Of a stretch of 64,000 bases of DNA, positions 28,914 through 56,725 are shown piece after piece. Position 1 is the stretch's first letter; each line of letters begins with the position of its first letter. The translations under genes and the position numbers were made by a program. This stretch comes from an uncultured Phycisphaerales bacterium (GTDB taxonomy: Bacteria; Planctomycetota; Phycisphaerae; Sedimentisphaerales; Anaerobacaceae), in the NCBI GenBank assembly GCA_963718665.1, contig OY970359.1, positions 2,368,001-2,432,000 on the forward strand, given 5' to 3'. The notes under the pieces are model-generated. The model saw nothing but the letters and a program-made list of their open reading frames with translations, was not told the DNA's origin and did not search any database.

Positions 28914-28972
28914 AAATAATAGATTAGTGTATTATTTATAGGTTAACCCACTGAAAGAAGGATTTATTATTG

Positions 28973-30511: not shown

Positions 30512-30745
30512 AGAAAGAGGTTAGTAGAATATTTGGAGTTTATGATAACAATTAAAAAATCATAAGTTTAATAACAGCTACCATAAATTTTATATGGAAT
30601 GCGCCGCGTTTTCATTCTTTCAGATGGTGTTCGCAAACTCATCGCTGTCAGATGCTGAAAAAGCCGAAGGCAATTCATATCGGTAAAAATTAATAAAAAT
30701 GTATTGATTGAAGGCAGGGTGTATATAATAACTATTTTTTTTGAT

Positions 30746-30972
30746 CATCCGGAACTTTCGCCCAGTCAGGTGGGACTTAAAGCTGTGCCGTTGGTGATTG
30801 AAGATGAGGTTTGGATAGGCGAGGGGGCCGTGATTCTAAAAGGCGTGAGTGTGGGTAAAAAGCAGTCATTGACGTAAATGCCGTCGTAACGAAAGATGTG
30901 TCTGCCTATACGGTTGTAGGCGGAATTCCGGCACGAGTGATCAAGAAAATTGGTATCAGTAGAAGCGAATGA
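30746..30972 (+). pseudogene. Frameshifted remnant of a hexapeptide-repeat O-acyltransferase
   Basis: [24 protein letters not shown] / shift near 30860 / [28 protein letters not shown]; no intact 5' part. Confidence 0.8.
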
Positions 30973-32333
30973 AGAAAGTGTTATTTTTAGCATATTATTT
31001 TCCGCCGATGGGTGGCGGCGGGGTTCAGCGGATATCAAAGTTTTGCAAATACTTGCCGCTGTTTGATTATTGTGCTGTTGTTGTCGCCGCAAAGAGTAAG
31101 TATTACGGTCACCCTGACGATCGTGTTCTAAATCAGGAAGTCAAGGATATTCCAAGATATGATATAGATATAGAGCCGCCGACTATAAATTCCTGCTTTC
31201 AGAGAATCACTGAAAGTGATTTAGGGCGATTTTTTAATTTGCATCAAATCCAATTGACTTATAGAGCTCAAAGAGCAGGGCAAATTGCGATCCAAAAAGA
31301 GAAACCGGATTTAATCTGTGCATCGGTCAGCCCCTTTCCCATGGCGCAAGTGGCCGGAATGCTGTCTGAAAAATATCATATCCCATGGGTGCTGGATATG
31401 CGGGATCCATGGGCTTTAGACCCGATTCAATGCTATGCTACAAAACTTCACTATTACCATGATTTGCGCACAATGAAACGAGCGTGTCGACGGGCAAATG
31501 CTGTGATTATGAATACGCCGGATTCGCTTGATGCAGCAAGAAAAAGCTTTCCAAATATAAATTCCCATAAATTTACATGTATTACCAATGGCTGGGATGC
31601 GGAGGATTTTAAATCGTTTACCTATCCAGGCGTTTTTCGCGATCCTGTAAACCCGATGACAATTGTTCATACTGGCGTCTTCCATACGCGTTCTGCCTTA
31701 TCGCAAAATCTTTCTGCAAAGAAAAGTTTCAAGGATAGTTGGAAGAGGTTAAAAAACGCGGTGAAATACTCCGTGGGCAATTCAAATTTACTGACTCGAA
31801 CGCCAAATTATTTGTTTCAGGCCATTTCGTTCTTGTTGAAACAAAAAAAAATATCCAAAACGGATGTGCGGGTAATTTTTGCCGGAGATTGTACCTCTGA
31901 AGATATAACCTTGGCCCAAATGCATGGTGTTGATGAGATGGTTGAATTTCGAGGCTATTTGGATCACGACCAATCGGTTCAACTGCTGAATAAAGCAGAT
32001 GTACTTTTTCTTCCGTTGCATGAACCCGAAGGGGGGTTGCCTTTGATTGTTCCCGGTAAAACCTATGAGTATCTGGCTGCTCAAAGACCGATCTTGGCAG
32101 CTGTACCGAAGGGGGACATACGACGTTTTGTGGAAAAAGCGGGTCTGGGGTATGTTTGTAATCCGACCGATGTTGCTCAAATTGCATCTATGCTTTTGGG
32201 GTTGATAGAAAGATATAGAAGCAGAACGGGTTTACGTGTCAGTCCAAATCATAGTTTCATTGGACAGTTTGAACGAAAAAATTTAACAGAACAGCTTGCG
32301 GTACTTTTTGATAAAGTGTTCTCTGGATACTGA
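30969..32333 (+). CDS. GT4-family glycosyltransferase
   Basis: [40 protein letters not shown]. Confidence 0.9.
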
Positions 32334-32355
32334 TATTTATAAGGGATAATTTATC

Positions 32356-32931
32356 GTGTTTTACATTCCTGGCACCAATCGGTTTTATGGACTGCTGTTA
32401 CGCTTATTCATGAAGTTTTATTATATTGGGGAAAATGTAATAATTGCTCCTTCTTGTGAGATTCGTCGAGCGGCAGCACCTTATATTTACATCGGAAACC
32501 GTGTTTCTTTGGGTAAAGATGTGTGGCTGAATATCCCTTATGAAGTGCCGGTTTCTATTAGAAATAGGCCTATAATAAAAATTGGTGACGGTACAGCCAT
32601 TGGTAGACGCTGCATGATTACTGCGCTAAACAGCATTGAGATTGGCAATAACGTTTTGTTTGGCCCCGGAGTCTTTATTGCCGATCATTCACACGAGTTC
32701 GGAGATGCTTCCAGACCGATCGTGAGCCAAGGTGTAACAGAACCAGGCAAAGTAATTATCGAAGAGGGGTGTTGGTTTGGTTATCACAGTGTGGTGGTTA
32801 CCCATAAAGGTCGTGAGATTCGGATTGGGCGCAACTCTGTGATTGGGACAAACGCCGTGGTAACTGAAAGTTTCCCATCATACAGTGTTCTGGTGGGAAA
32901 CCCAGCACGAAATGTAAGCAAAGCAAAGTAA
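32356..32931 (+). CDS. Hexapeptide-repeat (LbH) acyltransferase
   Basis: IGNNVLFGPGVFIADHSH, IGRNSVIGTNAVV, GNPAR. Confidence 0.9.
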   Translation: MFYIPGTNRFYGLLLRLFMKFYYIGENVIIAPSCEIRRAAAPYIYIGNRVSLGKDVWLNIPYEVPVSIRNRPIIKIGDGTAIGRRCMITALNSIEIGNNVLFGPGVFIADHSHEFGDASRPIVSQGVTEPGKVIIEEGCWFGYHSVVVTHKGREIRIGRNSVIGTNAVVTESFPSYSVLVGNPARNVSKAK

Positions 32932-33089
32932 TTAACCGACAGAAATCTTGTTTATCCTGTCTAACATTGATTCAGTGTAACCAGTGTTTTCGGCGGCTGA
33001 ATATTCTGTGTTCATCCGTATAATCTATGGTTTAAAAGTGATTGGTTTGACATGCTCGGGAAATTTCTTGTTTATGCAGTTTAAGTTGT

Positions 33090-34466
33090 ATGAATGAAGA
33101 AAGTGAAATTGTTGGGCAACCGGAATTTGTGGGACATACGGTCGTTCATCCGTTGGGATTGATGGCGGTTGTTGTTCTGGGAATATGTGTCTTGCTATTG
33201 CCAAGACGATGGTCCGTCTTGCCGCTTTTGATAATGGCCTGTTTTATTCCATCGGCACAGAGGATTATTATCGCTGGCTTGAATTTTGACTTTCTGCGTA
33301 TCATGGTGCTGTTTGGCGTTATGCGATTGATCCTTCACAACGAGCATCTTGCATTTGTATGGAAACCGCTCGATACTATAATGGTCCTTTGGGTATGCAG
33401 TGCTATGTTGATCTATAGTCTTCATCAGGGCACGTTTTCCGCCGTGATTAATCGTCTGGGTTTCGGGTTTGACGCCTTTGGTATGTATTTTTTGTTTCGC
33501 TGTCTAATCCGCAACTGGGAAGATATTGACCGGCTGGTAATCGGCGGCATTATCATCAGTATCCCGGTGGCAGCATTTTTCCTGTTTGAAAGAAGTACCG
33601 GACGAAATATTTTTTCTATTTTTGGCGGCGTTTCTGCAATTACGGTGATTCGCGAGGGTCGTCTGCGCTGTCAGGGTGCTTTTTCACACGAGATTCTGGC
33701 CGGGTGCTTCTGGGCTTCACTGATGCCGTTATTTGCTGCTTATTGGTGGAAAGGGACCCGAGAAAGAGTCTGGGCCGTAGTCGGACTTATAACAACATCC
33801 ATTGTTGTAATCTGCTGTGCCTCCAGTACGCCGGTCATGGGTGTCATCGCCGGGATGATAGGAGGGGGAATGTTCTGGCTTCGCCGCCATATGCGTTTAA
33901 TTCGCTGGGCTATTGTTCTAACCTTGGTTGGCCTGCATATGGTGATGCAGGCGCCCGTTTGGCATCTGGTATCACGGGTCAGTGCTGTGGGAGGGTCAAC
34001 CGGATGGCATCGATATAATCTGATAAATCAAGCTATCATAAATTTCAGTGACTGGTGGTTAACTGGCTGTTCCGGCTATACGGTACTTTCATGGGGTGTC
34101 CATGCTGGTGATATAACTAATCAGTATATTTTGGAAGGCGTTCGTGGCGGTTTTTTAACGTTTTGTTTGTTTATTGTTGTAATCGTAATTGCATTTCGCG
34201 AGGTCGGCAAACTCTGGCGTTTACAGTCCCAGCATCCATACTGCCTGGCATTGTCTTGGGCGATGGGTGTGAGTCTTTTTGTCCACTGCATGAATTTTAT
34301 TGGGGTATCCTATTTTGGGCAGATTCATATCGTGTGGTATCTCATCCTGGCCATGATCGGAAGTATGTCGATTCAGGCGGCGCCGGTGTTGATGCCAAGA
34401 ATAACGCTTTCATCTAAAGCCATCAAAAAACAGCGTTATCGAAATCTTCAGGCCGGTGGTGGGTAA
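33090..34466 (+). CDS. O-antigen ligase/Wzy-like polytopic membrane protein
   Basis: Many TM segments; RCQGAFSHEILAG, STGWHR, DITNQY; position in EPS locus. Confidence 0.7.
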   Translation: MNEESEIVGQPEFVGHTVVHPLGLMAVVVLGICVLLLPRRWSVLPLLIMACFIPSAQRIIIAGLNFDFLRIMVLFGVMRLILHNEHLAFVWKPLDTIMVLWVCSAMLIYSLHQGTFSAVINRLGFGFDAFGMYFLFRCLIRNWEDIDRLVIGGIIISIPVAAFFLFERSTGRNIFSIFGGVSAITVIREGRLRCQGAFSHEILAGCFWASLMPLFAAYWWKGTRERVWAVVGLITTSIVVICCASSTPVMGVIAGMIGGGMFWLRRHMRLIRWAIVLTLVGLHMVMQAPVWHLVSRVSAVGGSTGWHRYNLINQAIINFSDWWLTGCSGYTVLSWGVHAGDITNQYILEGVRGGFLTFCLFIVVIVIAFREVGKLWRLQSQHPYCLALSWAMGVSLFVHCMNFIGVSYFGQIHIVWYLILAMIGSMSIQAAPVLMPRITLSSKAIKKQRYRNLQAGGG

Positions 34467-39612: not shown

Positions 39613-39624
39613 GTGAATATACCT

Positions 39625-40083
39625 ATGAAAAGCAAGAAAATATGTCTGGTAGCATCGGCGGGGGGGCATTTGACTCAGCTTTTAAAGCTTGAGGATTGTT
39701 GGCGAGATGGCGAGTTCTTCTTTATTACGACTACTGATGTAATGAAAGAAAAACTTGAAAAGTCAGGCAAAACATATGTAGTTGGCGAGTGTAATCGTAA
39801 CCATCCTGCCTGTGTCATTAAGGTATTACTGAATTGCATCAGGATAGCGTTCACAGAAAATTTTGATGTTGTGATAAGTACCGGTGCTGCTGCTGGTTGC
39901 CTGATGTGTTTTCTTGGTAAAATCAAAGGTGCGAAAATAGTATGGCTTGATAGTATCACAAATGTTGAAAAACTTTCACTATCGGGTCGAATGGTGAGGT
40001 TTATAGCGGACCTGTTTCTTGTTCAGTGGCCTGAACTCGCCAAAAAACACAAAAATGTAGAATATATAGGTACAGTAGTATGA
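39625..40083 (+). CDS. Alg14/PssD-like glycosyltransferase subunit
   Basis: ASAGGHL.QL, STGA, SLSGR, VQWPEL. Confidence 0.9.
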   Translation: MKSKKICLVASAGGHLTQLLKLEDCWRDGEFFFITTTDVMKEKLEKSGKTYVVGECNRNHPACVIKVLLNCIRIAFTENFDVVISTGAAAGCLMCFLGKIKGAKIVWLDSITNVEKLSLSGRMVRFIADLFLVQWPELAKKHKNVEYIGTVV

Positions 40084-40562
40084 ATTTTCTGACAGTGGGG
40101 ACACAATTTCCATTCGACCGTCTAGTTCGGGCTATAGACGATATGTATGACGAAGGTTCGATTAATGAAGACATATTTGCTCAGATTGGACAAAGTACAT
40201 ACAGACCCCGCAATTTCGAATCGGTGGCTTGTCTGGAAAAAGGTGTGTTTGACGACTATATGAGGCAAGCCTCCGGGATAATCGGCCACGCAGGAATGGG
40301 TACGATAACCATGGCCTTATGTAACCATAAACCATTGCTCGTGATGCCGAGGCTCAGGAGATATCGCGAGGTTGTTAATGACCATCAATTGGCCATTGCT
40401 AAGAAGTTTTCGGAACTCGGGCACATACTAGCAGTCTATGATGCTAAAGATTTACCGGAGGGCGTTCGTAGGTTGGATAATTTCGTCCCTCTGGACAGAA
40501 AAGCCAACCCTGAAGCGGTGGCTGATAGAATTGTTCGTTTTCTTAATAATCTGCGTGACTGA
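40080..40562 (+). CDS. Alg13/PssE-like glycosyltransferase subunit (GT28 C-terminal)
   Basis: TVGTQFPFDRL, HAGMGTI, MPR...E.VNDHQ. Confidence 0.9.
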   Translation: MNFLTVGTQFPFDRLVRAIDDMYDEGSINEDIFAQIGQSTYRPRNFESVACLEKGVFDDYMRQASGIIGHAGMGTITMALCNHKPLLVMPRLRRYREVVNDHQLAIAKKFSELGHILAVYDAKDLPEGVRRLDNFVPLDRKANPEAVADRIVRFLNNLRD

Positions 40563-40577: not shown

Positions 40578-42560
40578 GTGCTTACCAACAACCGTATCAA
40601 AGCTGTAATACTCGCTGGAGTTCGTGACTTTGGGCGCTGCCCCATAGCATCACGTTTGCCTGCACCGCTGTGGCCGGTGGCAGGAGAGTTTACCTTGAAA
40701 CGTCTGCTTCTGCACTTAGCCAGTCAGGGGATAAAGCACATAACAATCTGTTCGAACGGTGACAGTTCGTTGCTAAAGAAAGCAATTGATATTGAAAACA
40801 TCCGGACGTTAGATGTGTGTTTTTGGGAGGAACCGCTGCCGGTCGGCACCGCGGGATCCATTCGCGACGCCGTGAATGGTAAGACAGACGAATTGGTCCT
40901 GGTATTTTCCGCCAATATGATGCGTCCCCCCGATATTAGTTTGTTGATAGCCGCTCACCACGAACAGGGGGCCGACTTAACCGTGGCGTTCAATCCAGCG
41001 TCGGAAAATGACAATATAAGGGGTGAGGCAGCTGGCATCTATGTCTGCAATTCATCTGTGTTGGAACACATTCCAGCAGTAGGTTATTACGACATAAAAG
41101 AAAGTTTGATTCCGGAACTGCTTCGAGCTGGTAAACATGTGCATTATTCTGTGCTGCCACACAGTGCTGGCAATTTCCGCGATTGGCGAGGGTATTTGGA
41201 TGCCATCAGCAACTACCTCGAAAACATGGCAGAAACAGATATCGATTTGAAAATATGTGAGAAGAATAGCAGGCACGTTATCTGGAAGGGTCATGGGGCA
41301 ATTGTTGAGTCAGGAGTGCGGTTTTGCGGCCGGGTTGTTATTCTCGATGGCGCTCGCATCGAAACAGGTGTTGTGATATTTGGTCCGACTATTCTCGGGC
41401 GCAACGTCAGTATCGGCGAAGACAGTGTTGTTGCCGGCAGTGTTATTTGGGATAATTCGCAGATAGGTAAGAACTGTGAAATCCAACGATGCCTCGTCGA
41501 TTACAATGTGGTCGTGCCGGACAATAACGTGGCAGGGGGCAACTGCATACCATCTGAACCGAAGGGAAGCTTGAAAAGGTCGATTACCAGGGCGTCGAAG
41601 CCGGAGAAACAAGGAGTTGGCGGATTGCGGCGGCAACCGCAACAGGCGTTTGGCAATCTGAACGAAAAACAACCGAATCGAAGGCAACGACAAGAACGAA
41701 GCATTCTGCCGTGGTTGGCGAGTGGGTTTGTATTCCTTGCTTTCTTGTGGTCTTACTGGCCTGGGATTATGGACCTGTGGAATACCTGGCAGAGGAGTGA
41801 TGAGTATTCCTCCGGCCTTTTGGTTCCTTTTCTTGCTGTTTACATCTTGTGGTCGAGGCGCCGGCAGATAATCGGAGTTCAGATACAGCCATCCTTGTGG
41901 GGCCTGCTGGCGTTTGTGGTAGTTCAGGCGGTGAGATTCTTCGGTCTATTCTTTATGTACGGTTCCGCGGAGAGATTATCGATTGTTTTAAGCATTGCTG
42001 CGCTGGTGTTGCTCTTGTTTGGGTGGGAGTTTTTCCGCAAAGTGTCTCCAATAGTGCTGTTTCTGCTCTTGATGTTGCCTTGGCCCAATCGGGTTCAGGC
42101 CGCTCTCGCGTTGCCTCTGCAGCGATGGGCTACATCATCTGCGGTGTTCTGTCTGGAGGTGATGGGTTACGATGTTGCGCACGAAGGCAATATCATTCAT
42201 ATCGGTAATGTCACCGTCGCAGTGGCGGAAGCGTGTAACGGGTTAAGGATGGTCACGGCATTTTTTGTAATTAGTGGCCTTGTGGTATTGCTGGTCGAAC
42301 GGGCGTGGTGGGAAAAGCTGATAGTCTTTGTTTCCAGCTTGCCCATCGCTCTGCTCTGCAACACTGTGCGACTGGCAATTACCGCGATTGCTTTCACAGT
42401 ACTTAAAGGTGAATACTGGGAGAAGATGTTTCATGACTTTGGTGGATATGCGATGATGCCGCTGGCCCTTGCGATAGTAGTTGGTGAACTTTGGTTTTTG
42501 GTAAAACTAACGACAGCCCCAAAGCAGAATAGAATAGTGGTAACCAAGGGTGCCCAATGA
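40578..42560 (+). CDS. Exosortase fused to an N-terminal degenerate nucleotidyltransferase + LbH module
   Basis: N-term KAVILAG, EPLPVGTAGSI, hexapeptide repeats; C-term TMs with VAEACNGLR, N.VR and HD (Cys/Arg/His triad). Confidence 0.9.
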   Translation: MLTNNRIKAVILAGVRDFGRCPIASRLPAPLWPVAGEFTLKRLLLHLASQGIKHITICSNGDSSLLKKAIDIENIRTLDVCFWEEPLPVGTAGSIRDAVNGKTDELVLVFSANMMRPPDISLLIAAHHEQGADLTVAFNPASENDNIRGEAAGIYVCNSSVLEHIPAVGYYDIKESLIPELLRAGKHVHYSVLPHSAGNFRDWRGYLDAISNYLENMAETDIDLKICEKNSRHVIWKGHGAIVESGVRFCGRVVILDGARIETGVVIFGPTILGRNVSIGEDSVVAGSVIWDNSQIGKNCEIQRCLVDYNVVVPDNNVAGGNCIPSEPKGSLKRSITRASKPEKQGVGGLRRQPQQAFGNLNEKQPNRRQRQERSILPWLASGFVFLAFLWSYWPGIMDLWNTWQRSDEYSSGLLVPFLAVYILWSRRRQIIGVQIQPSLWGLLAFVVVQAVRFFGLFFMYGSAERLSIVLSIAALVLLLFGWEFFRKVSPIVLFLLLMLPWPNRVQAALALPLQRWATSSAVFCLEVMGYDVAHEGNIIHIGNVTVAVAEACNGLRMVTAFFVISGLVVLLVERAWWEKLIVFVSSLPIALLCNTVRLAITAIAFTVLKGEYWEKMFHDFGGYAMMPLALAIVVGELWFLVKLTTAPKQNRIVVTKGAQ

Positions 42561-42601
42561 CCGGTTGGCACAACAAATTGTGCCGGAAGGAGAGTTGATA
42601 A

Positions 42602-44908
42602 ATGAATACCATAGAAAAATATGAGGGCGCTTCGATTGAACGCAGCCCAATCGATTTTGAAATGCCCCCCATGCCTGAAAGTGCCTCGACAGCCAGCTTG
42701 ATTGCTGCTGTTCTTCGCCAGTGGTACATTGCAGTGCTTGTATTTCTTGTAATGTGCGCAATCGGAATCCCTGCAATATGGTTGTTTTTAGAACCGCGGT
42801 ATGATGTGACCGGCGCAATAAGAGTTGCCCCTATTTTGTCGAATATCCTGACTGGAGAGGCCGATAAGGGAGAAATATCAAACTACCAAAGCTTTATGAA
42901 CACTCAGGCAGATATGGTTATTAGCCCTCAGGTAATCCAGAGAGTGGCGGATGATTTGACGGGCAAGCATCTGACGTTCTTTGAAGACCGAATAACTGGC
43001 ATTGGTGCAAAATTGAGACGCAAGATGGACATAGGCAAGGTAAAGCTTGATGCGGCGAACATATTAAAACAGGCGATGTACGACGGGATAATTACATCTA
43101 TGGCGGCTCGTAATAGCGAACTGGTGAAAGTTACGATGACGAGCAACAACCCGGAAGAAGCAAAGAAGATTGTTGATGCTTTCATTCAGGCCTATATGCT
43201 TGTCGAGGTCTCCAACTCTCTGCAGGGGCGGGATCAGCAACTGACGGTTCTTGAGAATGAGCAGAAGGTTTTGGCCGAGAAACTCGAAAGTCAGCGAGAA
43301 GCGATTCGGCAGCTTGGGCAGGAATATGGAAGTGTTACACTGACCGGCCGGCAGGATATGATGTTGGCGCGAGTGTCGAACTTGCTGGCTGAACAGACAA
43401 AAGTGGAAGCAAAAAGAATGGGGCTTGAAACACAGATTAAACTGCTCGAGGAGAAAAAGCCAAGTTTATCGCCGGACGAATTGATGAAGATGAGTGAGGA
43501 ATACCTAAACTCGGACATTGCCGTGAAGGAACTGACTAAGCAATTGGCGCAGCTGGAACAAGACGCGATTCTTTCCAGCCAGACGATGGTGCCGGGTAAT
43601 CCTATGTTGCAGCAGAAAAAGGATTTCGTAAAGACGTTTCAGACGCGACTCGACGAGAAGCGGGAAGAAGTGAGTAAGAAGTTCGATGAGCGGATGTCCA
43701 AGCAGGTGGATAAAGCCAGCGCTGACGGGTTGGCTAATGCCCGGCTGGATCTTGAGCAGACGGTTGTGTATGAGAATCGACTTCGGGAAATGCTCGCAAA
43801 TGAAGATGCTAAGACAGTGGAAGTGGGACGAAAGCAGTTGGCTATCGAGGAGATTAAAGAACAACTGGCTTCAACGAAGGAGATATACGACACTATTGGG
43901 CGGCGAATACAAGAGCTGGAAATGGAACGAAAACGTCCTGCACGGGTCTCAGTTGCCTATAACGCGGATATCGCGAGCATTCAGGATAAACGAGTCAAGC
44001 TTACTCTGGCGATTATATTTGGCGCGCTGGCCTGCGGACTGTTTGGAGCCATAGTAAGGGACAAGGCAGACCTTAGCTTGCACACTCCCGACGATGATGT
44101 GGTCAGACGCATTGGAATTCGGATAATCGGGACCACCACACGTCCTCGAACAGTTGAGCAAGCTCTTTGGTCAAGACAGGTGGCCGAGGACTATCAAACA
44201 ATTCGCGCCAACCTGGGATTACTTGACGATGGAGGGATGCCTAAGAAACTGGTTATTACCAGCCCTGGTCCGCGAGACGGCAAGACCACTTTTGCTGTTA
44301 ACCTTGCCACAAGTCTATCAAGGTCGGGTAAGAAAGTTCTTCTGATAGATGGCGACTTGAGAAAACCTGATATTGGGCGGCTGTTGAATATCCCGAGAGA
44401 ATCAAGATGTCTGCAGGATGTGCTTTTAGGAAACAAACTTGAGAAAGCTGCGTGTGCTGTGTCTTCAAACGGGTTGTATGTGCTTGCAGCGGATTCCCAA
44501 AGTTCTATTGACCCTTACGAGTTGTTGGCTTCGCCACGGATGGCGGAGCAGGTAAACAATATCAGCGAGGAGTACGACCACGTCATCATTGATACCCCGC
44601 CGGTGCTGGCATTTCCTGATGCCCTTTTGTGGGCCAAGGCGGCAGGCGCCGTCATACTGACCGGTTTTGCCGACCAGACGACCTCGCCGGACCTCAAAGA
44701 AACAAAGGAGAGGCTCGATGAGATAGGCGTGAGAATATTGGGGACTGTTCTCAGCAACGTTCCAGTCGGTCGTAGTTATTACCGTTATGGATATGGCTAT
44801 TACGCACAGGGCGGGCATACAAAACGAAACGGCAGAAATGCTGCCAAACGACCTTTGTTGTTACCGACAGATAACCCTGATGAGAAACCTAACGATTTGG
44901 TTTCGTGA
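42602..44908 (+). CDS. wzc: Wzc-type polysaccharide co-polymerase/tyrosine autokinase
   Basis: Two TMs flanking coiled coil; SPGPRDGKT, LLIDGDLRKP, IIDTPP, YYRYGYGYY. Confidence 0.92.
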   Translation: MNTIEKYEGASIERSPIDFEMPPMPESASTASLIAAVLRQWYIAVLVFLVMCAIGIPAIWLFLEPRYDVTGAIRVAPILSNILTGEADKGEISNYQSFMNTQADMVISPQVIQRVADDLTGKHLTFFEDRITGIGAKLRRKMDIGKVKLDAANILKQAMYDGIITSMAARNSELVKVTMTSNNPEEAKKIVDAFIQAYMLVEVSNSLQGRDQQLTVLENEQKVLAEKLESQREAIRQLGQEYGSVTLTGRQDMMLARVSNLLAEQTKVEAKRMGLETQIKLLEEKKPSLSPDELMKMSEEYLNSDIAVKELTKQLAQLEQDAILSSQTMVPGNPMLQQKKDFVKTFQTRLDEKREEVSKKFDERMSKQVDKASADGLANARLDLEQTVVYENRLREMLANEDAKTVEVGRKQLAIEEIKEQLASTKEIYDTIGRRIQELEMERKRPARVSVAYNADIASIQDKRVKLTLAIIFGALACGLFGAIVRDKADLSLHTPDDDVVRRIGIRIIGTTTRPRTVEQALWSRQVAEDYQTIRANLGLLDDGGMPKKLVITSPGPRDGKTTFAVNLATSLSRSGKKVLLIDGDLRKPDIGRLLNIPRESRCLQDVLLGNKLEKAACAVSSNGLYVLAADSQSSIDPYELLASPRMAEQVNNISEEYDHVIIDTPPVLAFPDALLWAKAAGAVILTGFADQTTSPDLKETKERLDEIGVRILGTVLSNVPVGRSYYRYGYGYYAQGGHTKRNGRNAAKRPLLLPTDNPDEKPNDLVS

Positions 44909-44936
44909 CGTCTGACCGTCCTGTAGGTAATCAATT

Positions 44937-46628
44937 ATGGGAATCATAAGAAATCTGATTGTTCTACGCGATACAAGCAAACAGCAGGCAAAAGATAGCA
45001 GCGACCTGCTCCGGCTTATGGTGTGCAACGAACCGTTTGGGAGTTTTGTTCTTGACTGCCTCAATGATACTGCCGGCTTTTGCAAGACGGGGAGGACGAT
45101 AGCAATTCCACAGGAGTGGGCTGTTCCGGATATAAAAAGCAGGCCAGGTATAGTTTACTACACAGAAACCGTGCCCATTTGTTCCAAACATATAGGACCT
45201 GTGCGAGAAAATTCTTGGGTTGTCGTTTACGACGGGAGATTTCTTACAGCGGTGGATAACCAGCAAATCCGTGAGATATTAGCTGACAGCCAAGCGGATG
45301 TGATAGCGATAAACATAGTCACTCAACTACGAACTTCATACGAGAAGGTTCTGACCACTTCACAAAATGAGCTTGTTGGGTTTCGGTTGTTCTATGAAGA
45401 TGCAGCCCAGCCATTTCCGGTCCCAGACGACTGGCCTCATCATCTCTTCTTGAGGGCTGGCGTGCTGAGCAGGCTCTTGATGGAAGGCGGTTTGCCTTTG
45501 GCTTTCGATAAGCTACTTGATCTGTGTTATTCAAAGTCGCTCGTGGTGCACAGCGCCAATGTCGGAGGCTCTGTGCTGGACCTGACTACAGAAAATGGTT
45601 TGCTGAAGTTAGTGCAAGGCAGGTTGGGTTCAATCGCAATGCTCTCTCATCACTGTGTGGACCATTCGCGAGGTAACAACAACGGGGATGATACCGCCGT
45701 AGCGGACAGTGCGAGGTTATTCGGCAAAATACTGCTCGGGAAAGGTATCAATATAGGTGAAAATGCAATCATAGTTGGTCCTACGATGGTTGGCAATGAT
45801 GTTAAGATTGGCAGGGATGCCGTTATAAGGGCATCTGTTATTGGCCCTGGTGTGTCAGTTCAGGCAGGCGAACTTATCGAGGAGAGGGTTCTCACGAACT
45901 TGCAGGCTGTTCCGAACAGGCCTGCGATAAAAACGCGCAGAGCTAACGCAGACCCAATGTGGAACGACGCTCAACATAATACAAGTCGGGGCAATTTCCG
46001 AGAATGGCCGAAATTTTCATATGCGAGGTTCATCAAAAGAGTTCTTGATATTCTTACAAGTGTAATTGTGCTGATTCTGTTTGCACCTGTTCTGCCAGTA
46101 ATCATGCTGGTCATAAAGCTGACCTCTCTCGGGCCGGTATTCTTCAAGGACACACGTCAGGGGCTGCATGGAAAGGTGTTTAAGTGTCTAAAGTTTAGGA
46201 CTATGCAGGTTGGCGCCGACCGAATGCAGGAGCGACTTCGGATTTTGAATCAGGCCGATGGGCCGCAGTTTATGATAACCGACGACCCGCGACTAAGTGC
46301 TGTCGGGAGATTTTTGCGCGAGACGTATATTGATGAGATACCACAGTTTGTCAACGTGCTGTTGGGACAAATGAGCGTGGTGGGTCCGAGACCGTCCCCC
46401 GAAAGTGAAAACCGCCTTTGTCCGTTCTGGCGGGACGCTAGGCTGTCGGTCAGGCCCGGCATCACCGGCCTTTGGCAGATGTGCAGGACCCGCCAGCCAA
46501 TGAAGGATTTCCAGGAATGGATACATTACGATATCAAGTATGTTAGAGATTTATCGTTGAAGTTGGATTTGTGGATATGCTGGCAAACTGCCAAAAAAAT
46601 GGTGGCGAAGTTCGTCAGCCAATTTTGA
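44937..46628 (+). CDS. Priming phosphoglycosyltransferase (Bac_transf) with N-terminal degenerate NTase-like/LbH module
   Basis: KRVLD, KFRTM, DDPR...GRFLR...DE.PQ..NVL.G.MS.VGPRP, PGITGLWQ; upstream IGENAIIVGPTMVGNDVKIG repeats. Confidence 0.9.
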   Translation: MGIIRNLIVLRDTSKQQAKDSSDLLRLMVCNEPFGSFVLDCLNDTAGFCKTGRTIAIPQEWAVPDIKSRPGIVYYTETVPICSKHIGPVRENSWVVVYDGRFLTAVDNQQIREILADSQADVIAINIVTQLRTSYEKVLTTSQNELVGFRLFYEDAAQPFPVPDDWPHHLFLRAGVLSRLLMEGGLPLAFDKLLDLCYSKSLVVHSANVGGSVLDLTTENGLLKLVQGRLGSIAMLSHHCVDHSRGNNNGDDTAVADSARLFGKILLGKGINIGENAIIVGPTMVGNDVKIGRDAVIRASVIGPGVSVQAGELIEERVLTNLQAVPNRPAIKTRRANADPMWNDAQHNTSRGNFREWPKFSYARFIKRVLDILTSVIVLILFAPVLPVIMLVIKLTSLGPVFFKDTRQGLHGKVFKCLKFRTMQVGADRMQERLRILNQADGPQFMITDDPRLSAVGRFLRETYIDEIPQFVNVLLGQMSVVGPRPSPESENRLCPFWRDARLSVRPGITGLWQMCRTRQPMKDFQEWIHYDIKYVRDLSLKLDLWICWQTAKKMVAKFVSQF

Positions 46629-46670: not shown

Positions 46671-49600
46671 ATGGCAGGGAGATATTTTAACTGGAAATTG
46701 ATAATAGTCTTGTTGATAGGACTTGTTGTTCTGGGCTCTACTGCTTTGGGTTTACGTAAATGGCAGAAAAGCAGAAGGGCCGAACAGGGGCTTGTGCTCG
46801 GGAACAAAGCGTATGATGAGCACAGGTGGGAAGAGGCAGCAAATCAACTTGGCCGTTATCTCGGTGTTATGCAGGATGATGTGCCGACGCTGCTCAAGTA
46901 TGCCGAGGCGCAGTTAAATATCAGACCTTTGAAACAAGACAACATTCAGCAGGCCATAGCAGCTTACCGGAACGTTTTGCGACTGGACCAAAGCAACATC
47001 AAGGCTGCGAAGCCCCTAAGTGAAATGTATTTAAGTATGGGGATGCCCGGAGAAGCCGAACTGGTTGTTACTCGGGCACTGCAAGCGGGCGAATCGATAG
47101 AACTGCGAAAAGTCCTGGCAATCGCTCTGGCAAACCAGCGCAAATTTACAGAAGCGGCAAAGGAGCTCAAAAGCATCATCGAGAAAAATCCCGAGCAGGC
47201 ATCGGTCTATGAGGTATTGGGTCGGCTGGTTGAGCAGCGTCCCGAAGAATTCACCGAAGACCCTAACTTTTGGTTTGACCAGGCAGTAAAAACAAACCCC
47301 TTTTCCGCAGAGGCCTATATTGCTCGCGGGGCATACTTCTTAAGGCATGGAAACAAGAATGGGGCGATGGCCGATTTGGAACAGGCAGAACAAAAGGATT
47401 TGTCCGATCCAACTACACGGCTTCGGCTTGCGGAGGGGTTGATTAATGCGGATGCTGCGGACCGCGCCAAAAAACAACTCGAGATTATTCATGCTTTGGA
47501 GCCAAACAATCAGCTTCTGTGGCAGCTATGGGCGCAGCTTGCACTTAAATCGGACTTAAATGATATGATGTTGAAAGTTGCGGACACCGGATTGAAAGAG
47601 CTTTCGTCTCAACCTTGGGATTTTATGCCCGATGCCGCAGAGTTGTTCATCAGATGTGGTCAGCTTGAACGTGCCGGAGAGTGTATCTCTATGATGCGCC
47701 AAAAGGACGTTGCTCCTGCGATGACGGCTTTTTTGGGGGGGCTTTTGGCTGAAAGCCAGGGACGCGGTTATGAAGCTGTCAAGTATTGGCGTCAAGCGAT
47801 TCAGTTGGGGGCTAAGTCCGCGAGGGTGCGAATCGCACTGGCTAACGCGCTATGGCGGCTTGGTGACAGGCAGTCAGGTATCAATCAGTTACGTACCCTC
47901 GTTTCGGAACAACCGAATCTTTTTAGCGGACGTATGGCTCTTGCACGGATGCTGGCGGAGACCGGTCGATGGGCTGATGTGGCGGAGCAAACTCGTATGG
48001 CAAGGCAAATCGCCCCGCATAGCGGCGATGCGGTCTTACTGGATATCCAGGCGAGGATACAAGTGCTCGCAGACAGCAAGACAGATAAGGAGTCATCGTC
48101 GTATCGTGATATAGAGGCGACACTTGATAACCTTGATAAAGCCACTAATGGCGCCATCGAAGTCAAACTTTTGCAGTTTCGGCTTGCTCTTCAGCGGGAC
48201 AAACTGCCTGAGGCCGAGAAACTAATAGCCGACTTGGAGAAGGCACATCCGGCTGAATTGAAGGTTACTTTGGCCGAGGCAGACTTGCTCGTTGCACAGA
48301 ACAAAATCGATGACGCAATCGCAAAACTACGCGAGGCAATCGGCACATCCCCGCAGTCCACGGCGGTTATGAGGTATCTTGTTGTTTTGCTGGCAGCAAA
48401 GGGGGACCATCAGGAATGTGAAACGCTGATTAAGTACGCCCTCGCATCCGGGGTACAACCTCCCGCGAAAATAGAGATGTGTTTGTTGCTGAGTGACGTT
48501 TATAGTCGCTGGAACGAGAGCGGCAAACGTTATTCGCTGCTCAACTCGCTTGCCGAGGAGCTGCAGGACGACATTATCGTCCAGCGGGAGCTGTTGACGT
48601 GTGAGGAGGTATTAAAAGACAGCAGCCGTGCACAGCATGTCGTTGACAGGATTAAGAGTATCGAGGGCGATGACGGCTGGCAGTGGCGATATGAACAGGC
48701 GAAGATTTGGTTCGCTCAGGAAGATTTCAAGAGTCGATACCCTCAAATCGTGTCGCTTCTTCAGGGAAATCTTCTGGCCAATCCCGATGACCAGGCCAGC
48801 CGAGTGTTGTTGGCGGCGGCATACGAAAAAGGGGATGACCAGCGTCTTGCGATTTCGACTTATACTGAGGCGATTAACCGATCACCAAAAGACATTCGGA
48901 TAATAGTGCCCGCGGTTGCCGCTCTTTATAGGGCTGGCGAATATGCCCGGGCGGAGGAAATTCTCAAGCAGGCGGCCGAAGAGAAGCTTTACCATCCCGA
49001 ACTGGAACGGCTGGAGATCCAGGGTGCCCTTGGACGCGGTGACCTTGGCTCTGCGAATGATGTTCTGGAGAAAATGCTGGACAGAGACCCGAACAACCAC
49101 TCGGTGTGCTTGTCTCTTGCCCTGCTGAAAATTCGGCAGGATCAATTAACGGAAGCGGATAAGTTGGTGGGGAAGTTGAGGACCGAAGAGCCGAATTCTT
49201 TGCCGATTGCTGCGGCACAAGTTGAGCTGGATATTCGCAGGGGCAAGTCCGACGACGCCTTACACATCTGTGATAAAATGGTGAATAAATTGCATACTGC
49301 TTCTGCCTGTTTGCTTCGCGGGAGGACATACGCTGCTCTGAAGCAGGCCGACAAGGCAAGAGAAGATTTTGAACGTGCAGTAACTATGGAACCCAACAAT
49401 GCGGATGCATGGGTTGCCAAGAGTATTTTTCATCATTCACTTGGAGAATCTGACAAGGCAATTTCCGATATTAGCCACGCATTATCTGTTATACCAGATG
49501 ACCTGCAAATCCAGAAAACCGCAGTGTCCCTTTATCTGGCATCGGACAATAATGCTTTACGTCAGGAAGGAGAGTCGATTCTTCAAAAAGCGATGGACTC

Positions 49601-50842
49601 GCATCCTGAAGATGCCGAACTTCGCCTCCAGAAAGCGCAGCTGCTGCTTGCCAAAGGGACAGCTCCAGAAATCGAGGAGGCAACAGGTATCCTTCAGGCC
49701 ATAACCGAAAAGCAGCCGGATGTTGGAGATGCTTGGGTGCTTCTGGCACAGATTGCTTTGCAGGACGGCAAACCAGCAAAGGCGATTGACATTGCTTTGC
49801 GTGGTCTTGTCCACAGGCCTAATGACAGAACCCTGCTGTTGTTGAAGGCGAGGGGGGAGGCGGCAAGGTCTCCGGCTCTGGCGTTGCCGACTATGAGGGC
49901 TTTGTGGGAACTCGACCCGAACAACGCAGACGCGACGGTTTCTCTGGCTGAAACATACGTGGCCGCGGGCGAGTATGAGGAGGCAGTAGATTTTCTCAGA
50001 AAACAACCGGCTTCTACAGATGCTTTGCAACAACGCAGGATTAAGTTGGCTCTTGCCATGGCGATGTACAAGAATGGCGATAAGACCGAGTCAGAGGAAA
50101 TACTCCGAGTGTTGTACGAGTCAGAACCGAACGACCCCAGTCCGTTGTTGGCACAAATCAGACTGCTGCGGGACGACAAACTGTGGGGCCAGTTGCGAGA
50201 GAAGGTTACCGCCTGGTGTGAAGAGCATTTCAATGAGACAAGAACAACTGTCTTTATCGCTGATGAGCTCGCGGGAGTCAAAGACGGCGAAAGTAAACAG
50301 ATAGCCGAGGAATTATTGCGATGCGTTCTGAAGCGAGATGCGAATTCTGCTGTGGTAATGACGCGACTTGGTATGTTGCTGCAGACGGCCGGGCATCGGC
50401 AGAAGCGGCAAAACTGTATGAGCGGGTTCTTGAACTGCAGCCCGATAATCCGATCGTCATTAATAATCTTGCGTGGATTCTTTGTGAGGAGCAGGGGCGT
50501 CCTAATGAGGCGATAGAGCTTGCTGAACGTGGCCTGGCGAAGGCGCCTGACTACGTTGATTTGATTGACACTCGTGGTATGGCGTACTATCGGCTGAAGC
50601 AGTACGACAAAGCGGCGCAGGATTTCAAGAAGTGCGTCCGCTTATATCCCAGCCGGGCGTTGGCCATAGTCACTTCGTATTTTCATTTGGGAAGGTGTCT
50701 GGCAGACCTTGGAGAAAAAGCTCAGGCAATTGAGCAATTGAACAAGGCCCTTGAGTTAAACAAAGAACTTGGCGGCCTGGGCAGCGCTGATATCGCCGAG
50801 GCACAGCGATTGCTGGTACAATTATCAGGTGGAGGAAATTAA
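46671..50842 (+). CDS. Large membrane-anchored TPR protein (PrsT-like), frameshifted near 50393
   Basis: TPR repeats throughout; frame 46671 loses TPR character after LLQTAG and frame 50321 resumes SAEAAKLYERVLELQPDN..NNLAW. Confidence 0.8.
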
Positions 50843-51605: not shown

Positions 51606-52415
51606 GTGTCAGAGCGGAGACGGGGGAAAACCTTAGCGATTGTGGTGTTGCTATGTGCGGCTTCGGTTGCCAGCGCATTTCCTACCGTCATTTCAGGAAA
51701 TGCACCCGTCTGTTCTATATCCACATCAGACGACTGCGCCACCAATGTTATGATCTATTGCCTGGGCCCCAGTGCGGCCTGCGACCAGATAAGTGAATTG
51801 GGCAGGGTGATGCTCCAGCCGCCGTCCGGCAGTCAGATAACGGTAACATCAGAGAACCAGCGTTGCCTGCCCGCGTTGCCGTCGGCGATAGCAATGGTTC
51901 TGACGGGATTCATATGTATCTCTTTGATTCGGGACCGCAGGGCCTGGCTGGCTGTCCTGGCGGGGCTGCTGTGGGTGGGCCAGACAGGTATTTGGGCTTT
52001 GCCCGAAGTGACCTCACGGCTGAGCCGAAGAGTCCACAGCGGCCAACAAGTTAACACGGCACTTGCTGCCCCGTATCCTCTCGGAGGATGTTTCTATCCA
52101 GATAGTTACAATGAAGAGACCCGATATGCAGGTCTTTTGCACCACCTTGCCGGCATACCTCGAGACATCAGCACCTTCACAAATAACCGCACGGTACTTA
52201 TCAGGTATTTTTCCGGCGTGGCCGGTAAAGATACGCGAGCATTGCATCACGCGATTCTCGAATCGCAGCTTGTCTTAAGCCAGCTAACTAACTGTTTGGT
52301 TTCCGGAACCAGGCAGTTCGTTTGTTTCAAACCAGCATTCATTTCTTTCTGCCAATTACCGCGTGGCCCTCCTATATCCGCAGAGATACTTTTTGAAAAA
52401 CCCGCAGGAGTGTAA
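51606..52415 (+). CDS. Membrane protein with signal peptide, internal sorting-like motif and C-terminal RGPP (candidate arrest-peptide leader)
   Basis: GGAGG RBS + GTG; LAIVVLLCAASVASA; LPALPSA-TM-RDRR; second TM; LPRGPP. Confidence 0.7.
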   Translation: MSERRRGKTLAIVVLLCAASVASAFPTVISGNAPVCSISTSDDCATNVMIYCLGPSAACDQISELGRVMLQPPSGSQITVTSENQRCLPALPSAIAMVLTGFICISLIRDRRAWLAVLAGLLWVGQTGIWALPEVTSRLSRRVHSGQQVNTALAAPYPLGGCFYPDSYNEETRYAGLLHHLAGIPRDISTFTNNRTVLIRYFSGVAGKDTRALHHAILESQLVLSQLTNCLVSGTRQFVCFKPAFISFCQLPRGPPISAEILFEKPAGV

Positions 52416-52512
52416 TCGCGAAACACTTCTTGAAGGTTTGAATCGTTTTAATAAGGAAACCGGCATTTTTGCCGGAAAAGATAAATCGAAAAAAATAGAA
52501 AGGATGACAATT

Positions 52513-53142
52513 ATGAAAAAGTTACTTTTAATAACAACGTTGGTCGCCTTAATGACCGTTCCGGTCTTGGCGACACCAACTATTGACTTCAGCCAGTCCA
52601 CCGGCGGATGGAGTTATACGGCATCGGGTCCGGGCACAGGGACTTTTTCGTTCCAGCCTATGATTATCGTTGATCAGGGACTGGGCAGTAGTTTGGACCC
52701 GCTCGTTGGTAAAGAGGTAGTCATCCCTGACCTGACTCTAAGTGTACTGAACGTCCTTACTCCAGTAACCTCAACGATAAAAATTACGGATGGTTCAACA
52801 GATTATCTTACCGGTACGCTCGGCAGTGGGAATGCTTACATAGTTTTTGCGACCGTAACCGGCTATCCCGAAATCCAAGCTGATATAACGGGCGTTACAG
52901 TTATTAACACCATTTCATCGCCGGCTTTGGCAGCTATTGACTCATATCCATTGGACTTTGCTCTTTCATTGAATTTGGCTGGGGTAAATGTCCAAAATGC
53001 AATCAGTCTTGGTCATCCAAATCTCAGAGGCGGTTCAGTGGCAGGATCGATGAACATTATCGTTCCTGCTCCTGGTGCAATTCTGCTGGGCAGCATCGGT
53101 GTGGGTCTTGTCGGCTGGTTGCGAAGGAGAAGAACACTGTAA
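52513..53142 (+). CDS. PEP-CTERM-like (VPAPG variant) surface protein
   Basis: Signal peptide; Thr/Ser/Gly-rich; [26 protein letters not shown]. Confidence 0.9.
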   Translation: MKKLLLITTLVALMTVPVLATPTIDFSQSTGGWSYTASGPGTGTFSFQPMIIVDQGLGSSLDPLVGKEVVIPDLTLSVLNVLTPVTSTIKITDGSTDYLTGTLGSGNAYIVFATVTGYPEIQADITGVTVINTISSPALAAIDSYPLDFALSLNLAGVNVQNAISLGHPNLRGGSVAGSMNIIVPAPGAILLGSIGVGLVGWLRRRRTL

Positions 53143-53181
53143 GGAATTACCTTGATGAGTTTTTTAAGAAGAAAGATGATT

Positions 53182-53847
53182 ATGAAAAAGTTAATTTTAA
53201 TAATAGCTTTGCTGGCGCTAATGGCAACACCTGCGCTGGCGGCCCCAACTATCAACATCGGTAACCAAAGTCTCGGATACTGGAAGCAGGGCGACCCCGG
53301 CACTACATATCAAGTCTGGGATTTCACGCCAGCTTCCCAGAATCCAGGTAATCCTATCCAGTTCTTCCCTGAGCAAGAATTAAATCCCAATGACCCGGGC
53401 AATATGGTTTACGCACAGACACTTCCTGGTACCTGGGATGGAAGCAGCGCTCTCGTAAGCAGCGCGGACAACGGCAACAGGATTGTTGTAGACTTGAAAA
53501 TCAATAACTATGCAAACGCCAACCCCTATAAGTATATCTGGGTTGACTTAGGGCTAACAGGTGGCAGCATAGAAAATGCTACAGCGGCAGGAGATGATCC
53601 CACAGTCGACGTTACCTCCAGTCTCGTCGGATCTGCACCTAATGGAATAGGAACTAGTTTCGGCTTTTTACTCAGGCCAAATCCGAGCTTTGAAACAATA
53701 GTAATCACTATAGATGGTGGATCACTGGATTGGATTCACGTCGATACCATCTGCACCACCACCACCGTCCCTGCTCCGGGAGCAATTTTGCTGGGCAGCA
53801 TTGGCGTAGGTCTTGTCGGCTGGCTTCGAAGACGCAGGACTTTGTGA
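53182..53847 (+). CDS. PEP-CTERM-like (VPAPG variant) surface protein; paralog of 18724-19347
   Basis: Same tail as upstream gene; body SLGYW..G.PGTT...WDFTPAS shared with 18724. Confidence 0.9.
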
Positions 53848-56587: not shown

Positions 56588-56725
56588 TTCAAATCACTCA
56601 CACGAACCGGTATCAGCAAAATCTCCGACCGCGGCCTCGGCATAGACCGATTCCGCCTTCTCACCCACTCCGAAATCAACTACCTCCGGAAATCCACCGC
56701 CGAAAAACACCCGGCTAAGGATTAA
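56588..56725 (+). pseudogene. Possible 3'-end fragment of an RluB/RsuA-family pseudouridine synthase
   Basis: KSLTRTGISKISDRGLGIDRFRLLTHSEINYL resembles L.R..IG.l....L..G..R.LT..E...L; no upstream body. Confidence 0.4.

Follow-up and report, generated by a model that had tools for sequence, protein, structure and literature searches.

Within a 64,000-nucleotide stretch of DNA from an uncultured Phycisphaerales bacterium (hereafter the window), two genes of a polysaccharide cluster each encode a catalytically degenerate, pyrophosphorylase-like module fused to a membrane enzyme, with module A carried by an exosortase and module B by a priming PGT. These paired modules travel together in planctomycete polysaccharide clusters, and may thus be docking partners that bring enzymes to one place. 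We assign a probability of roughly 0.5 to the reading that A and B form a double-pseudoenzyme pair of the eIF2B gamma/epsilon kind, docking partner enzymes onto the priming PGT, probably with an allosteric effect.

Architecture of the two fusion genes

The exosortase gene (40578-42560; 660 aa, GTG start, N-terminus ...KAVILAGVRDFGRCPIASRLPAPLWPVAG) and the PGT gene (44937-46628; 563 aa) comprise the following parts:

40590..41222, + strand: module A pseudo-nucleotidyltransferase domain (aa 5-215; fold match to 8x7s, VTC1 and GMPPB)
41271..41552, + strand: module A left-handed beta-helix (aa 232-325; PF25084/PF24894; pLDDT about 90)
41559..41705, + strand: linker from module A to the exosortase (aa 328-376; pLDDT <50 at 328-375)
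41709..42560, + strand: exosortase (EpsH/Xrt family) membrane domain (PF09721; TIGR02602)
44943..45632, + strand: module B pseudo-nucleotidyltransferase domain (aa 3-232; fold match)
45690..45902, + strand: module B left-handed beta-helix (aa 252-322)
45999..46628, + strand: monotopic priming PGT catalytic domain (PF02397; D466-E467 dyad)

In the exosortase product, Pfam detected NTP_transferase at aa 8-144 (E 1.2e-7), LbH at aa 232-324 (E 1.9e-13) and Exosortase_EpsH at aa 387-641 (E 1.3e-57), which bears out the proposal, made in a sequence-only reading, that its N-terminus is a degenerate nucleotidyltransferase (NTase) followed by a left-handed beta-helix (LbH). The membrane domain scored 195.6 bits with PF09721 (cut-off 25.7) and 143.5 bits with TIGR02602 (cut-off 105.55), and the subtype models XrtA, XrtD, XrtW, XrtB and XrtC all stayed under their cut-offs (XrtD 166/400, XrtW 149/425, XrtA 141/208). 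The motifs Cys-x-Gly, Asn-x-x-Arg and His-x-x-x-Gly, given for exosortases in the excerpts of PMC1569441, occur here as C553-x-G555, N595-x-x-R598 and H619-x-x-x-G623 and are invariant in 110/110 sequences. Judged by the model's low confidence there, the linker of about 48 residues between module A and this domain is probably flexible.

In the PGT product, Pfam found LbH at aa 251-325 and Bac_transf at aa 367-556 (E 2.4e-58), and detected no NTase domain. The same reading had recognised a more eroded NTase before the beta-helix from the strings VVYDGRF and VLDLTTENGL; both are present, and the predicted model of module B (residues 1-335) agrees, aligning to eIF2B epsilon, GMPPB, VTC1 and CugP (best fold match Z 16.7, rmsd 6.4, 286 aligned). 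The enzyme itself is a monotopic PGT with a Bac_transf core, a single hydrophobic segment (363-403) and an Asp-Glu dyad (D466-E467, in 108/108); its domain superposes on WbaP 8t53 with Z 21.1 and rmsd 1.9 over 160 aligned residues. It does not match the large monoPGTs (WbaP/WcaJ/EpsZ), which have an N-terminal four-helix membrane bundle and a cytoplasmic DUF: the hydrophobic segment at 363-403 is the only one, and the models TIGR03025/03023/03022 fell below cut-off.

Both fusions recur among relatives, which excludes an assembly artefact or a one-off fusion: among the matches listed, from searches restricted to lengths near that of the fused protein, PF09721 was present in 119/120 module A relatives and PF02397 in 117/120 module B relatives.

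Degenerate active sites under purifying selection

Aligning the family profiles of A and B to one another gave an hhalign probability of 98.9 (E 3.7e-17), and the best solved sequence match of both is PDB 8x7s (E 4.7e-45 for A, 2.8e-15 for B), the cyanobacterial CugP-type UDP-glucose pyrophosphorylase, entered as tlr0611, UTP--glucose-1-phosphate uridylyltransferase. Both modules are a GMPP/CugP-like fold followed by a left-handed beta-helix, and their proposed homology to GMPPA and eIF2B gamma/epsilon was upheld by profile and fold matches.

The residue set of active NTases (GxGTR, Lys23, Asp111, Asp219, Glu195-Lys196 and the sugar hairpin, in VTC1 numbering) is complete in neither module. 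When 138 A sequences were compared with five intact references, the Asp111 equivalent was present in 0/138, the Asp219 equivalent in 1/138, the loop Arg in 10/138 and EKP in 0/138; among 44 B sequences, the loop Arg was present in 1/44, the Lys in 0/44 and the Asp111 equivalent in 2/44. The window's module A lacks the Thr/Arg of GxGTR, both metal-binding Asp and the entire YG..EKP sugar hairpin; none of the 138 A sequences has this sugar-holding hairpin (VTC1 Tyr145, Gly146, Glu162, Asn173) in unaltered form, through deletion or change. It retains G14, acidic E85, G90-x-A-G93 and a family motif, G169-Y-Y-D172-I-K174-E175, whose Lys174-Glu175 aligns, charge-reversed, with VTC1 Glu195-Lys196. 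An acidic residue 85 (136/138) and G90 (138/138) are spaced like the base-binding Asp80/Gly85 of VTC1, and the Lys23 position is Arg in 71/138. In module B the nucleotide loop and GxAG helix are gone and the hairpin is kept, with E136 in 44/44, D215 in 40/44 and Y153 retained; position 151 is Arg in 41/44 and Leu in the window's copy. The erosion is complementary: A retains the nucleobase side without the sugar hairpin, and B the opposite.

Modules A and B are nevertheless under purifying selection, and the catalytic residues of the exosortase and PGT are intact. In comparisons with two close relatives, the pseudo-NTase domains had dN/dS of 0.19-0.26 (about 0.2-0.3), resembling the exosortase domain and wzc. 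For the beta-helices, where it could be estimated, the value was 0.23-0.43. Pseudogene decay is accordingly rejected.

Strong conservation round the old pocket, with a nucleotide half in A and a sugar half in B, could also be expected if A, or A and B jointly, were a still-active pyrophosphorylase or another enzyme supplying nucleotide-sugar to the PGT, and no intact CugP/GMPPB-type gene was found in the window's genome (G000, 94.6% complete). This explanation is very improbable, in view of the near absence of catalytic and metal residues, the charge reversal in A, and the RmlA-, ManC-, GlmU-like and UDPGP-family genes available in the genome for supply. The active site of a pyrophosphorylase lies within a single domain, so that a combination of two half-sites is unlikely.

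Gene cluster and expression

The two fusion genes stand among the following features:

26520..34466, + strand: upstream cluster part (EpsI-like DUF3485, Wzx flippase, glycosyltransferase, acyltransferase, polytopic membrane protein)
39613..40562, + strand: Alg14/Alg13-like two-gene glycosyltransferase (PF08660, PF04101), directly upstream of module A
42602..44908, + strand: Wzc-type polysaccharide co-polymerase / tyrosine autokinase (TIGR01007 over cut-off)
46671..50842, + strand: PrsT-like TPR protein, split by a one-base deletion near 50395
52363..53847, + strand: two PEP-CTERM-like proteins with a VPAPGA...GWLRRRR tail, candidate substrates of the window exosortase

The wzc gene, whose product has two TM helices, a Walker A motif and a Tyr-rich tail, sits between the exosortase and PGT genes. 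The PGT product probably receives one of its early sugars from the Alg14/Alg13-like transferase, and the polytopic membrane protein, for which Pfam gave no match, was read as Wzy. In the two closest relatives examined the PrsT-like protein is intact (1390 aa). Two metatranscriptome runs shared 6-7% of words, and their contigs, mostly of 85-95% likeness, overlap parts of both fusion genes; these come from relatives, and level, strand or a single transcript cannot be inferred from them. A promoter and terminator scan gave results at chance level.

Distribution, gene order and alternative fusions

The two fusions had been expected to co-occur, and they do: among 151 family genomes, 93 have both A and B, 4 have A alone, 5 have B alone (9/151 with one) and 49 have neither, counts that are inflated by kinship and operon linkage. 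Genes of a shared operon are found together even if their products never meet. The PGT lies 3.3-5.6 kb downstream of A on the same contig in 84/94 genomes with both genes. In other orders A is standalone in 35/37 loci, with the PGT within the locus in 35/37 and wzc between A and PGT in 30/37. Three genomes (G023, G030, G034) have lost this exosortase and have only a housekeeping one, yet keep A and B::PGT. What A is consistently paired with is B::PGT rather than the exosortase.

It is unlikely, yet consistent with part of these data, that A and B are not mutual binders, each self-associating through its beta-helix, or A binding Wzc or another pathway enzyme while B dimerises or regulates its own PGT, as do the DUF and helix bundle of large PGTs. 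Homologous GMPP-type enzymes assemble, and homodimerise, via the beta-helix (PMC9168903, in the portion consulted), wzc commonly intervenes in the other-order loci, and A remains where B has eroded: in L095, L101, L103 and L106 (4/37 other-order loci) A is intact and the PGT, its beta-helix largely or wholly lost, gives no B profile match. A heteropair is favoured by the complementary loss pattern and by a weak complex score (below). Also against this alternative are eight loci, 4 of other orders and 4/8 of other classes, in which the PGT immediately follows A without wzc.

The docking reading is further illustrated by alternative fusions. At one locus (L109) A is fused directly to the PGT. 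In another lineage a divergent form, A', is joined to a WecG/TagA glycosyltransferase (PF03808), as seen in 49/66 assessable metagenome loci and in 16/19 genome loci picked by B' match; B'::PGT follows it in 19/19 metagenome loci having at least 5.5 kb downstream. Profile comparisons of A' with A and B' with B each gave a probability of 99.5, with signature residues in common. No WecG/TagA gene was found in the window's genome.

Searches did not establish a range beyond Planctomycetota. On plasmids, A' and B gave no match, and standalone A gave 9 weak matches to ordinary nucleotidyltransferases. Look-alike clusters in an atlas include Acidobacteriota and Chloroflexota, as leads only, and looking for longer fusions turned up 3 intact ManC-PMM-type proteins.

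Exosortase substrates and the link to sorting

A regex search of the genome gave 14 PEP-CTERM-type tails, comprising 11 VPEP/IPEP, 2 VPAPGA and 1 doubtful. The VPAPGA tail tracks the locus (95/104 vs 14/47). Strict specificity of this tail for the window exosortase was not shown: G041, G077, G089 and G111 (89-93% complete) have the tail, yet only a housekeeping exosortase was found in them.

A further explanation, which we consider fairly unlikely, keeps A and B as a PGT-regulating pair and regards the exosortase fusion as a by-product of adjacency, a mere membrane anchor for A, with sorting and glycan initiation uncoupled. In many unfused loci an exosortase gene comes straight after A or A' (68/69 assessable metagenome loci for A'), which would make read-through fusion easy; the fused clade contains at least 7 fissions or unfused forms, and exosortases occur in 298/301 class genomes as against 72/301 for A-type modules (profile A3). 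Against it, the fusion persists across one order and 4 genomes of other classes, a second origin is indicated at L095 by trees of both halves and an AU test (p 0.0004), though in one assembly, the locus exosortases cluster by A subtype in the tree, and the tail tracks the locus.

Module A has also been proposed to sense NDP-sugar, and might then gate the exosortase, making protein sorting conditional on the presence of glycan precursors. GMPPA, a regulator of GMPPB, binds GDP-mannose (PMC11228364, in the portion available), and A retains the base-side positions described above (85, G90 and, in about half of sequences, Arg at Lys23). With the sugar hairpin lost in all 138 A sequences, NDP-sugar sensing by A is doubtful, and gating is quite improbable, as outside the window's order A is usually not on an exosortase and a low-confidence linker separates A from the membrane domain. 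A point against the docking reading itself is that the predicted active site of the exosortase lies on the outer side of the membrane (PMC1569441, in excerpt), so that cytoplasmic A could not directly pass substrate to it. The proposed coupling of protein sorting to glycan initiation therefore survives as one use of the pair and not as its defining role, because A is mostly standalone in other orders, TagA-fused elsewhere, and outlives exosortase loss.

Predicted complex and proposed mechanism

Co-assembly of A and B, the other part of the earlier proposal, gained weak backing from multimer prediction, which scored the A:B complex at 0.49 (weak) against 0.01 for the best of 3 controls, with at least 87% of contacts shared between runs and partner pLDDT of at least 73. 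The mark applied is reached by 116/157 solved complexes and 2/215 mismatches, and at scores of 0.60 or less by just 18/157 solved complexes and both mismatches; as similar complexes have been solved (7d72, 8yre, eIF2B), the score may reflect likeness only.

In the mechanism that we propose, A and B would be pseudo-pyrophosphorylases descended from a CugP/GMPP-type enzyme, with B anchored at the cytoplasmic N-terminus of the priming PGT. We infer that A binds B, probably via the beta-helix domains in the manner of GMPPA-GMPPB and eIF2B gamma-epsilon, and that the pair serves as a docking unit, probably with allosteric effects, where a Wzx/Wzy polysaccharide pathway begins. The enzyme fused to A would be kept beside the PGT: in the window a dedicated second exosortase, and in the other lineage a WecG/TagA transferase, for which the PGT product would be the substrate. 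A may still bind nucleotide with the base-side residues that it retains, and thereby tune the PGT.

Relation to known systems and implications

In eIF2B gamma/epsilon, two dead NTase+LbH paralogues are combined, one with a C-terminal catalytic domain of another kind. It is among the top fold matches of module B (Z 16.7) and gives strong profile matches to A; the window pair differs in being bacterial and tied to membrane polysaccharide-initiation and protein-sorting enzymes; identity in the fold alignments is 9-14%, and no sign of direct ancestry was found. GMPPA-GMPPB, KONJAC-VTC1 and GlgD-GlgC share the fold and a catalytically inactive member, GlgD being an inactive subunit that regulates the active GlgC pyrophosphorylase. 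In the window, however, both modules are dead, A has its sugar hairpin deleted, and G000 yielded no intact paralogue as a target. CugP-type 8x7s, the closest solved sequence, and bacterial GMPP/ManC-LbH enzymes differ from A and B in having the catalytic and metal-binding residues.

The locus resembles PEP-CTERM/exosortase EPS loci (Haft 2006, PMC1569441) in its Cys/Arg/His triad, EpsI-like gene, TPR protein, Wzc, PGT and nearby PEP-CTERM-like substrates, but its exosortase bears an N-terminal cytoplasmic pseudoenzyme, and the excerpts of that paper mention an EpsI fusion only. As in EpsZ-EpsW, CapM-CapB and small monoPGTs with extra domains (PMC12802240, in excerpt), in which the priming step is controlled post-translationally by a partner or fused domain, the PGT has an added part; instead of an N-terminal helix bundle or DUF, this is a pseudo-NTase+LbH whose cognate partner is separate. 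A literature search found no description of an NTase-exosortase, NTase-PGT or TagA fusion, although the O'Toole 2021 survey of monoPGT fusions and its supplements may list NTase-PGT fusions.

The pair bears on two matters, the presence of exosortases in exopolysaccharide loci and the control of the priming PGT, and it offers soluble, testable handles on each, namely two domains, each about 320 residues long, whose signature residues are defined. Natural variants are available too: A occurs free or attached to one of three kinds of membrane enzyme, and some genomes have lost the exosortase. If A:B binds as predicted, it would be a bacterial reuse of two dead pyrophosphorylases as a docking unit. 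In a bolder and unlikely extension, a nucleotide-sensitive A:B hub would be the planctomycete counterpart of eIF2B gamma/epsilon, bringing the PGT, another glycosyltransferase and a dedicated exosortase into one initiation complex. PEP-CTERM proteins of one tail class would then undergo cleavage at the nascent lipid-linked glycan, and might also be attached to it or receive their glycan from it. If true, this would name a physical link between exosortases and exopolysaccharide synthesis, which since 2006 has been inferred from gene neighbourhoods alone.

Two degenerate modules within a polysaccharide cluster

The genome holding the window consists of one contig and is 94.6% complete; the named relatives nearest to it carry the labels Sedimentisphaerales or Phycisphaerales (Planctomycetota). 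The exosortase and the priming phosphoglycosyl transferase (PGT) are located within a Wzx/Wzy polysaccharide cluster, in the order EpsI-like gene, flippase, glycosyltransferases, Alg14/Alg13-like pair, exosortase, wzc, priming PGT, PrsT-like TPR gene, LuxR regulator and two PEP-CTERM-like genes, with wza on the opposite strand.

Features of the cluster and its surroundings (window coordinates)
20285-25861 (-), surface protein (1858 aa) containing Ig, PKD and cadherin-like repeats, adjoining the cluster
39613-40562, Alg14/Alg13-like pair, directly upstream of module A
40578-42560, exosortase with module A
42602-44908, wzc
44937-46628, priming PGT with module B
46671-50842, PrsT-like TPR gene
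51606-52415, ORF flanking the PEP-CTERM-like genes, no Pfam or NCBIfam match
52363-53847, two tandem PEP-CTERM-like proteins with an identical VPAPGA-type sorting tail
54329-55156 (-), ORF flanking the same genes, no Pfam match
56715-59567 (-), GLUG/fibronectin-III protein, downstream of wza
60407-61543 (-), GH113 glycoside hydrolase, downstream of wza

Compared with loci L001 and L002, where it encodes 1390 aa, the PrsT-like gene lacks one base near 50395 and is split in two, through either a sequencing error or a real frameshift.

The sequence-only reading had placed a degenerate nucleotidyltransferase plus left-handed beta-helix (NTase+LbH) on both enzymes, and domains, models and residue losses bear this out as real and conserved. 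The exosortase (660 aa) carries an NTP_transferase-like domain and a beta-helix at its N-terminus (module A), whose model best matches the structures 8x7s and VTC1. In the PGT (563 aa) a beta-helix lies N-terminal to the Bac_transf core, and no Pfam domain was detected in residues 1-230. Its predicted model over residues 1-335 aligns to eIF2B epsilon, GMPPB, VTC1 and 8x7s (Z 15.9-16.7, rmsd about 6), and the N-terminus is therefore read as another module of this kind (B), more eroded than A. The top solved sequence match is 8x7s for the A and B profiles alike. Both host enzymes look catalytically competent from their conserved residues: the Asp-Glu dyad of the PGT, its catalytic motif, is kept in 108/108 aligned relatives, and the Cys/Arg/His of the exosortase motifs given in PMC1569441 in 110/110.

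Loss of catalytic residues

A total of 138 A and 44 B sequences were aligned with five intact references, with residue roles for VTC1 drawn from PMC9168903. In A, the loop Thr is left in 0/138 and the loop Arg in 10/138, two Asp positions are kept in 0/138 and 1/138, and the sugar hairpin is deleted in all 138. Other positions are nearly invariant, namely the base-side acid at position 85 (136/138), G90 and G93 (138/138 each) and the family motif D172-I-K174-E175 (137, 136 and 137 of 138 for D172, K174 and E175), which lines up with the Glu-Lys pair that is critical in GMPPs, its charges being swapped. In B, which aligns to the references with less certainty than A does, the loop, Lys and GxAG helix are gone and the hairpin is kept (E136 44/44; Arg151 41/44, Leu in the window; D215 40/44). 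Judged by these alignments, A and B are both probably catalytically dead, with complementary erosion. Against the two nearest relatives, dN/dS of the pseudo-NTase domain is 0.19-0.21 for A and 0.25-0.26 for B, close to the 0.24-0.26 of wzc.

Tyr153 of B (window 45393-45395) is kept in 107/108 close relatives and is Tyr or Phe in 44/44 diverse ones; with the Wzc gene adjoining, it is, speculatively, a candidate phosphorylation site. Five loci (L095, L100, L101, L103, L106) have PGT B modules lacking much or all of the beta-helix, with A intact and the hairpin Glu apparently kept, and offer a natural way to learn which part of B is important.

Co-occurrence and fusion history

The two modules travel together, as the earlier proposal would have it: among 151 family genomes, A is found in 97 and B::PGT, the fusion of B to the transferase, in 98, with both in 93, one alone in 9 (A 4, B 5) and neither in 49. 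Of the 94 genomes having both genes, 84 carry the PGT on the same contig as A and 3.3-5.6 kb downstream of it; A is clearly unfused in 4/97. Because of kinship and operon linkage, this co-occurrence is weak evidence for contact.

Across the class, a tally including one unpublished genome (G425, used nowhere else), the A3 profile, an A-type profile, matches 72/301 genomes and exosortases are present in 298/301. In other orders, 37 of 46 A matches, chosen for more flanking DNA, were examined: A was standalone in 35, exosortase-fused in 1 and PGT-fused in 1, with a PGT present in 35 and a B profile match in 30. An exosortase lies within about 8 kb in only 5/37, and 8-63 kb off on the same contig in several others. 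Eight loci from other classes comprise four fused and four with A directly 5' of B::PGT. A and B::PGT are both retained in three genomes of the family (G023, G030 and G034; 96, 81 and 77% complete), and only a housekeeping exosortase was found in them. The constant partner of A is B::PGT.

In quick trees rooted on the intact enzymes, with resolution stopping short of the base, the main exosortase fusion falls in a single clade with 98% support, which is surrounded by standalone groups and includes 7 unfused members. Locus L095 is a separate exosortase fusion (AU p 0.0004, for one assembly and a group named after the tree was seen), and none of 60 fused representatives lay nearest to it.

A putatively dedicated exosortase and its candidate sorting tails

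The genome encodes a second, unfused exosortase (G000:C1:1346000-1362000, locus L152) with its own wza, EpsI-like, TPR and Wzz-like neighbours. In a sample of the order, 12/12 genomes without A have one exosortase, and 30/31 with A (window excluded) have at least two. Every family genome checked has a standalone exosortase, about 320-380 aa long, that shares about 30% identity with the fused enzyme.

The two VPAPGA...GWLRRRR tails downstream of the locus differ from 11 VPEP/IPEP tails elsewhere in the genome, and this tail occurs in 95/104 genomes with the locus versus 14/47 without. It was not found in G023, G030 and G034. Since no locus-type exosortase was found in four genomes with the tail, the pairing of the two is only suggestive. 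The tail, strongly conserved across the family and scoring under the Pfam PEP-CTERM cut-off, is possibly an unnamed subtype.

A divergent pair on a third enzyme

The B profile also matched families without A3 matches, whose loci carry divergent homologues, A' and B' (probability of homology to A and B 99.5). They share the signatures of A and B, with G-F/Y-x-D-L/M-K-E in 31/31 A' and Y-R-E..R-x-Y in 26/31 B'. Of 19 loci selected through B', 16 have A' as the C-terminal half of a WecG/TagA/CpsF glycosyltransferase (TagA; PF03808 confirmed on 3), 2 have it adjoining one, and in 1 it was not seen; where A' was used for selection, B'::PGT is present in 12 of 13 loci. Among metagenome A' loci, of which the best 80 of 205 were used, TagA is fused in 49/66 with enough upstream DNA, the next gene is an exosortase in 68/69, and B'::PGT follows in 19/19 with enough downstream DNA. 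An early-step glycosyltransferase gene frequently lies immediately 5' of A or A' (L155, L157, L242, L243; L140, L147), Alg14/Alg13-like in the window's order and some A' loci and WecG/TagA in others.

These fusion counts imply that, within one pathway, A-type modules ride on three distinct membrane enzymes, nearly always beside B::PGT. Two of the three lineages show tight linkage to the exosortase, so the suggested coupling of protein sorting to glycan initiation stays viable.

Predicted complex and proposed mechanism

Co-assembly of A and B, also put forward from the sequence, was modelled with A (5-325) and B (3-322) each given as an alignment. The complex scored 0.49, against 0.01 for the best control; at least 87% of contacts were common to the runs, with partner pLDDT of at least 73. 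The score mark is reached by 116/157 solved complexes and 2/215 mismatches; at scores of 0.60 or under, it is met by only 18/157 solved complexes and by both mismatches. The prediction thus favours co-assembly weakly, and because similar complexes are solved, the score may reflect likeness to these only.

The simplest account would be a pseudoenzyme pair on the priming PGT. A and B would be joined via their beta-helices, as in solved homologues (PMC9168903), on the cytoplasmic side of the PGT, where the pair would hold the A-fused enzyme beside it and may tune PGT activity in response to nucleotide. Partner control of a priming PGT has a precedent in EpsW-EpsZ (PMC12802240). In the window's genome, no intact paralogue was found for a GMPPA-style role, and other routes to nucleotide-sugars are present.

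Inactive NTase+LbH subunits are already known, whereas in the bacterial pair both members appear dead and are carried on exosortase, PGT and WecG/TagA; no such pair was found in the literature covered, the main PGT-fusion survey lying outside its scope. The architecture is real and conserved, and represents a fresh variation on inactive NTase+LbH subunits.
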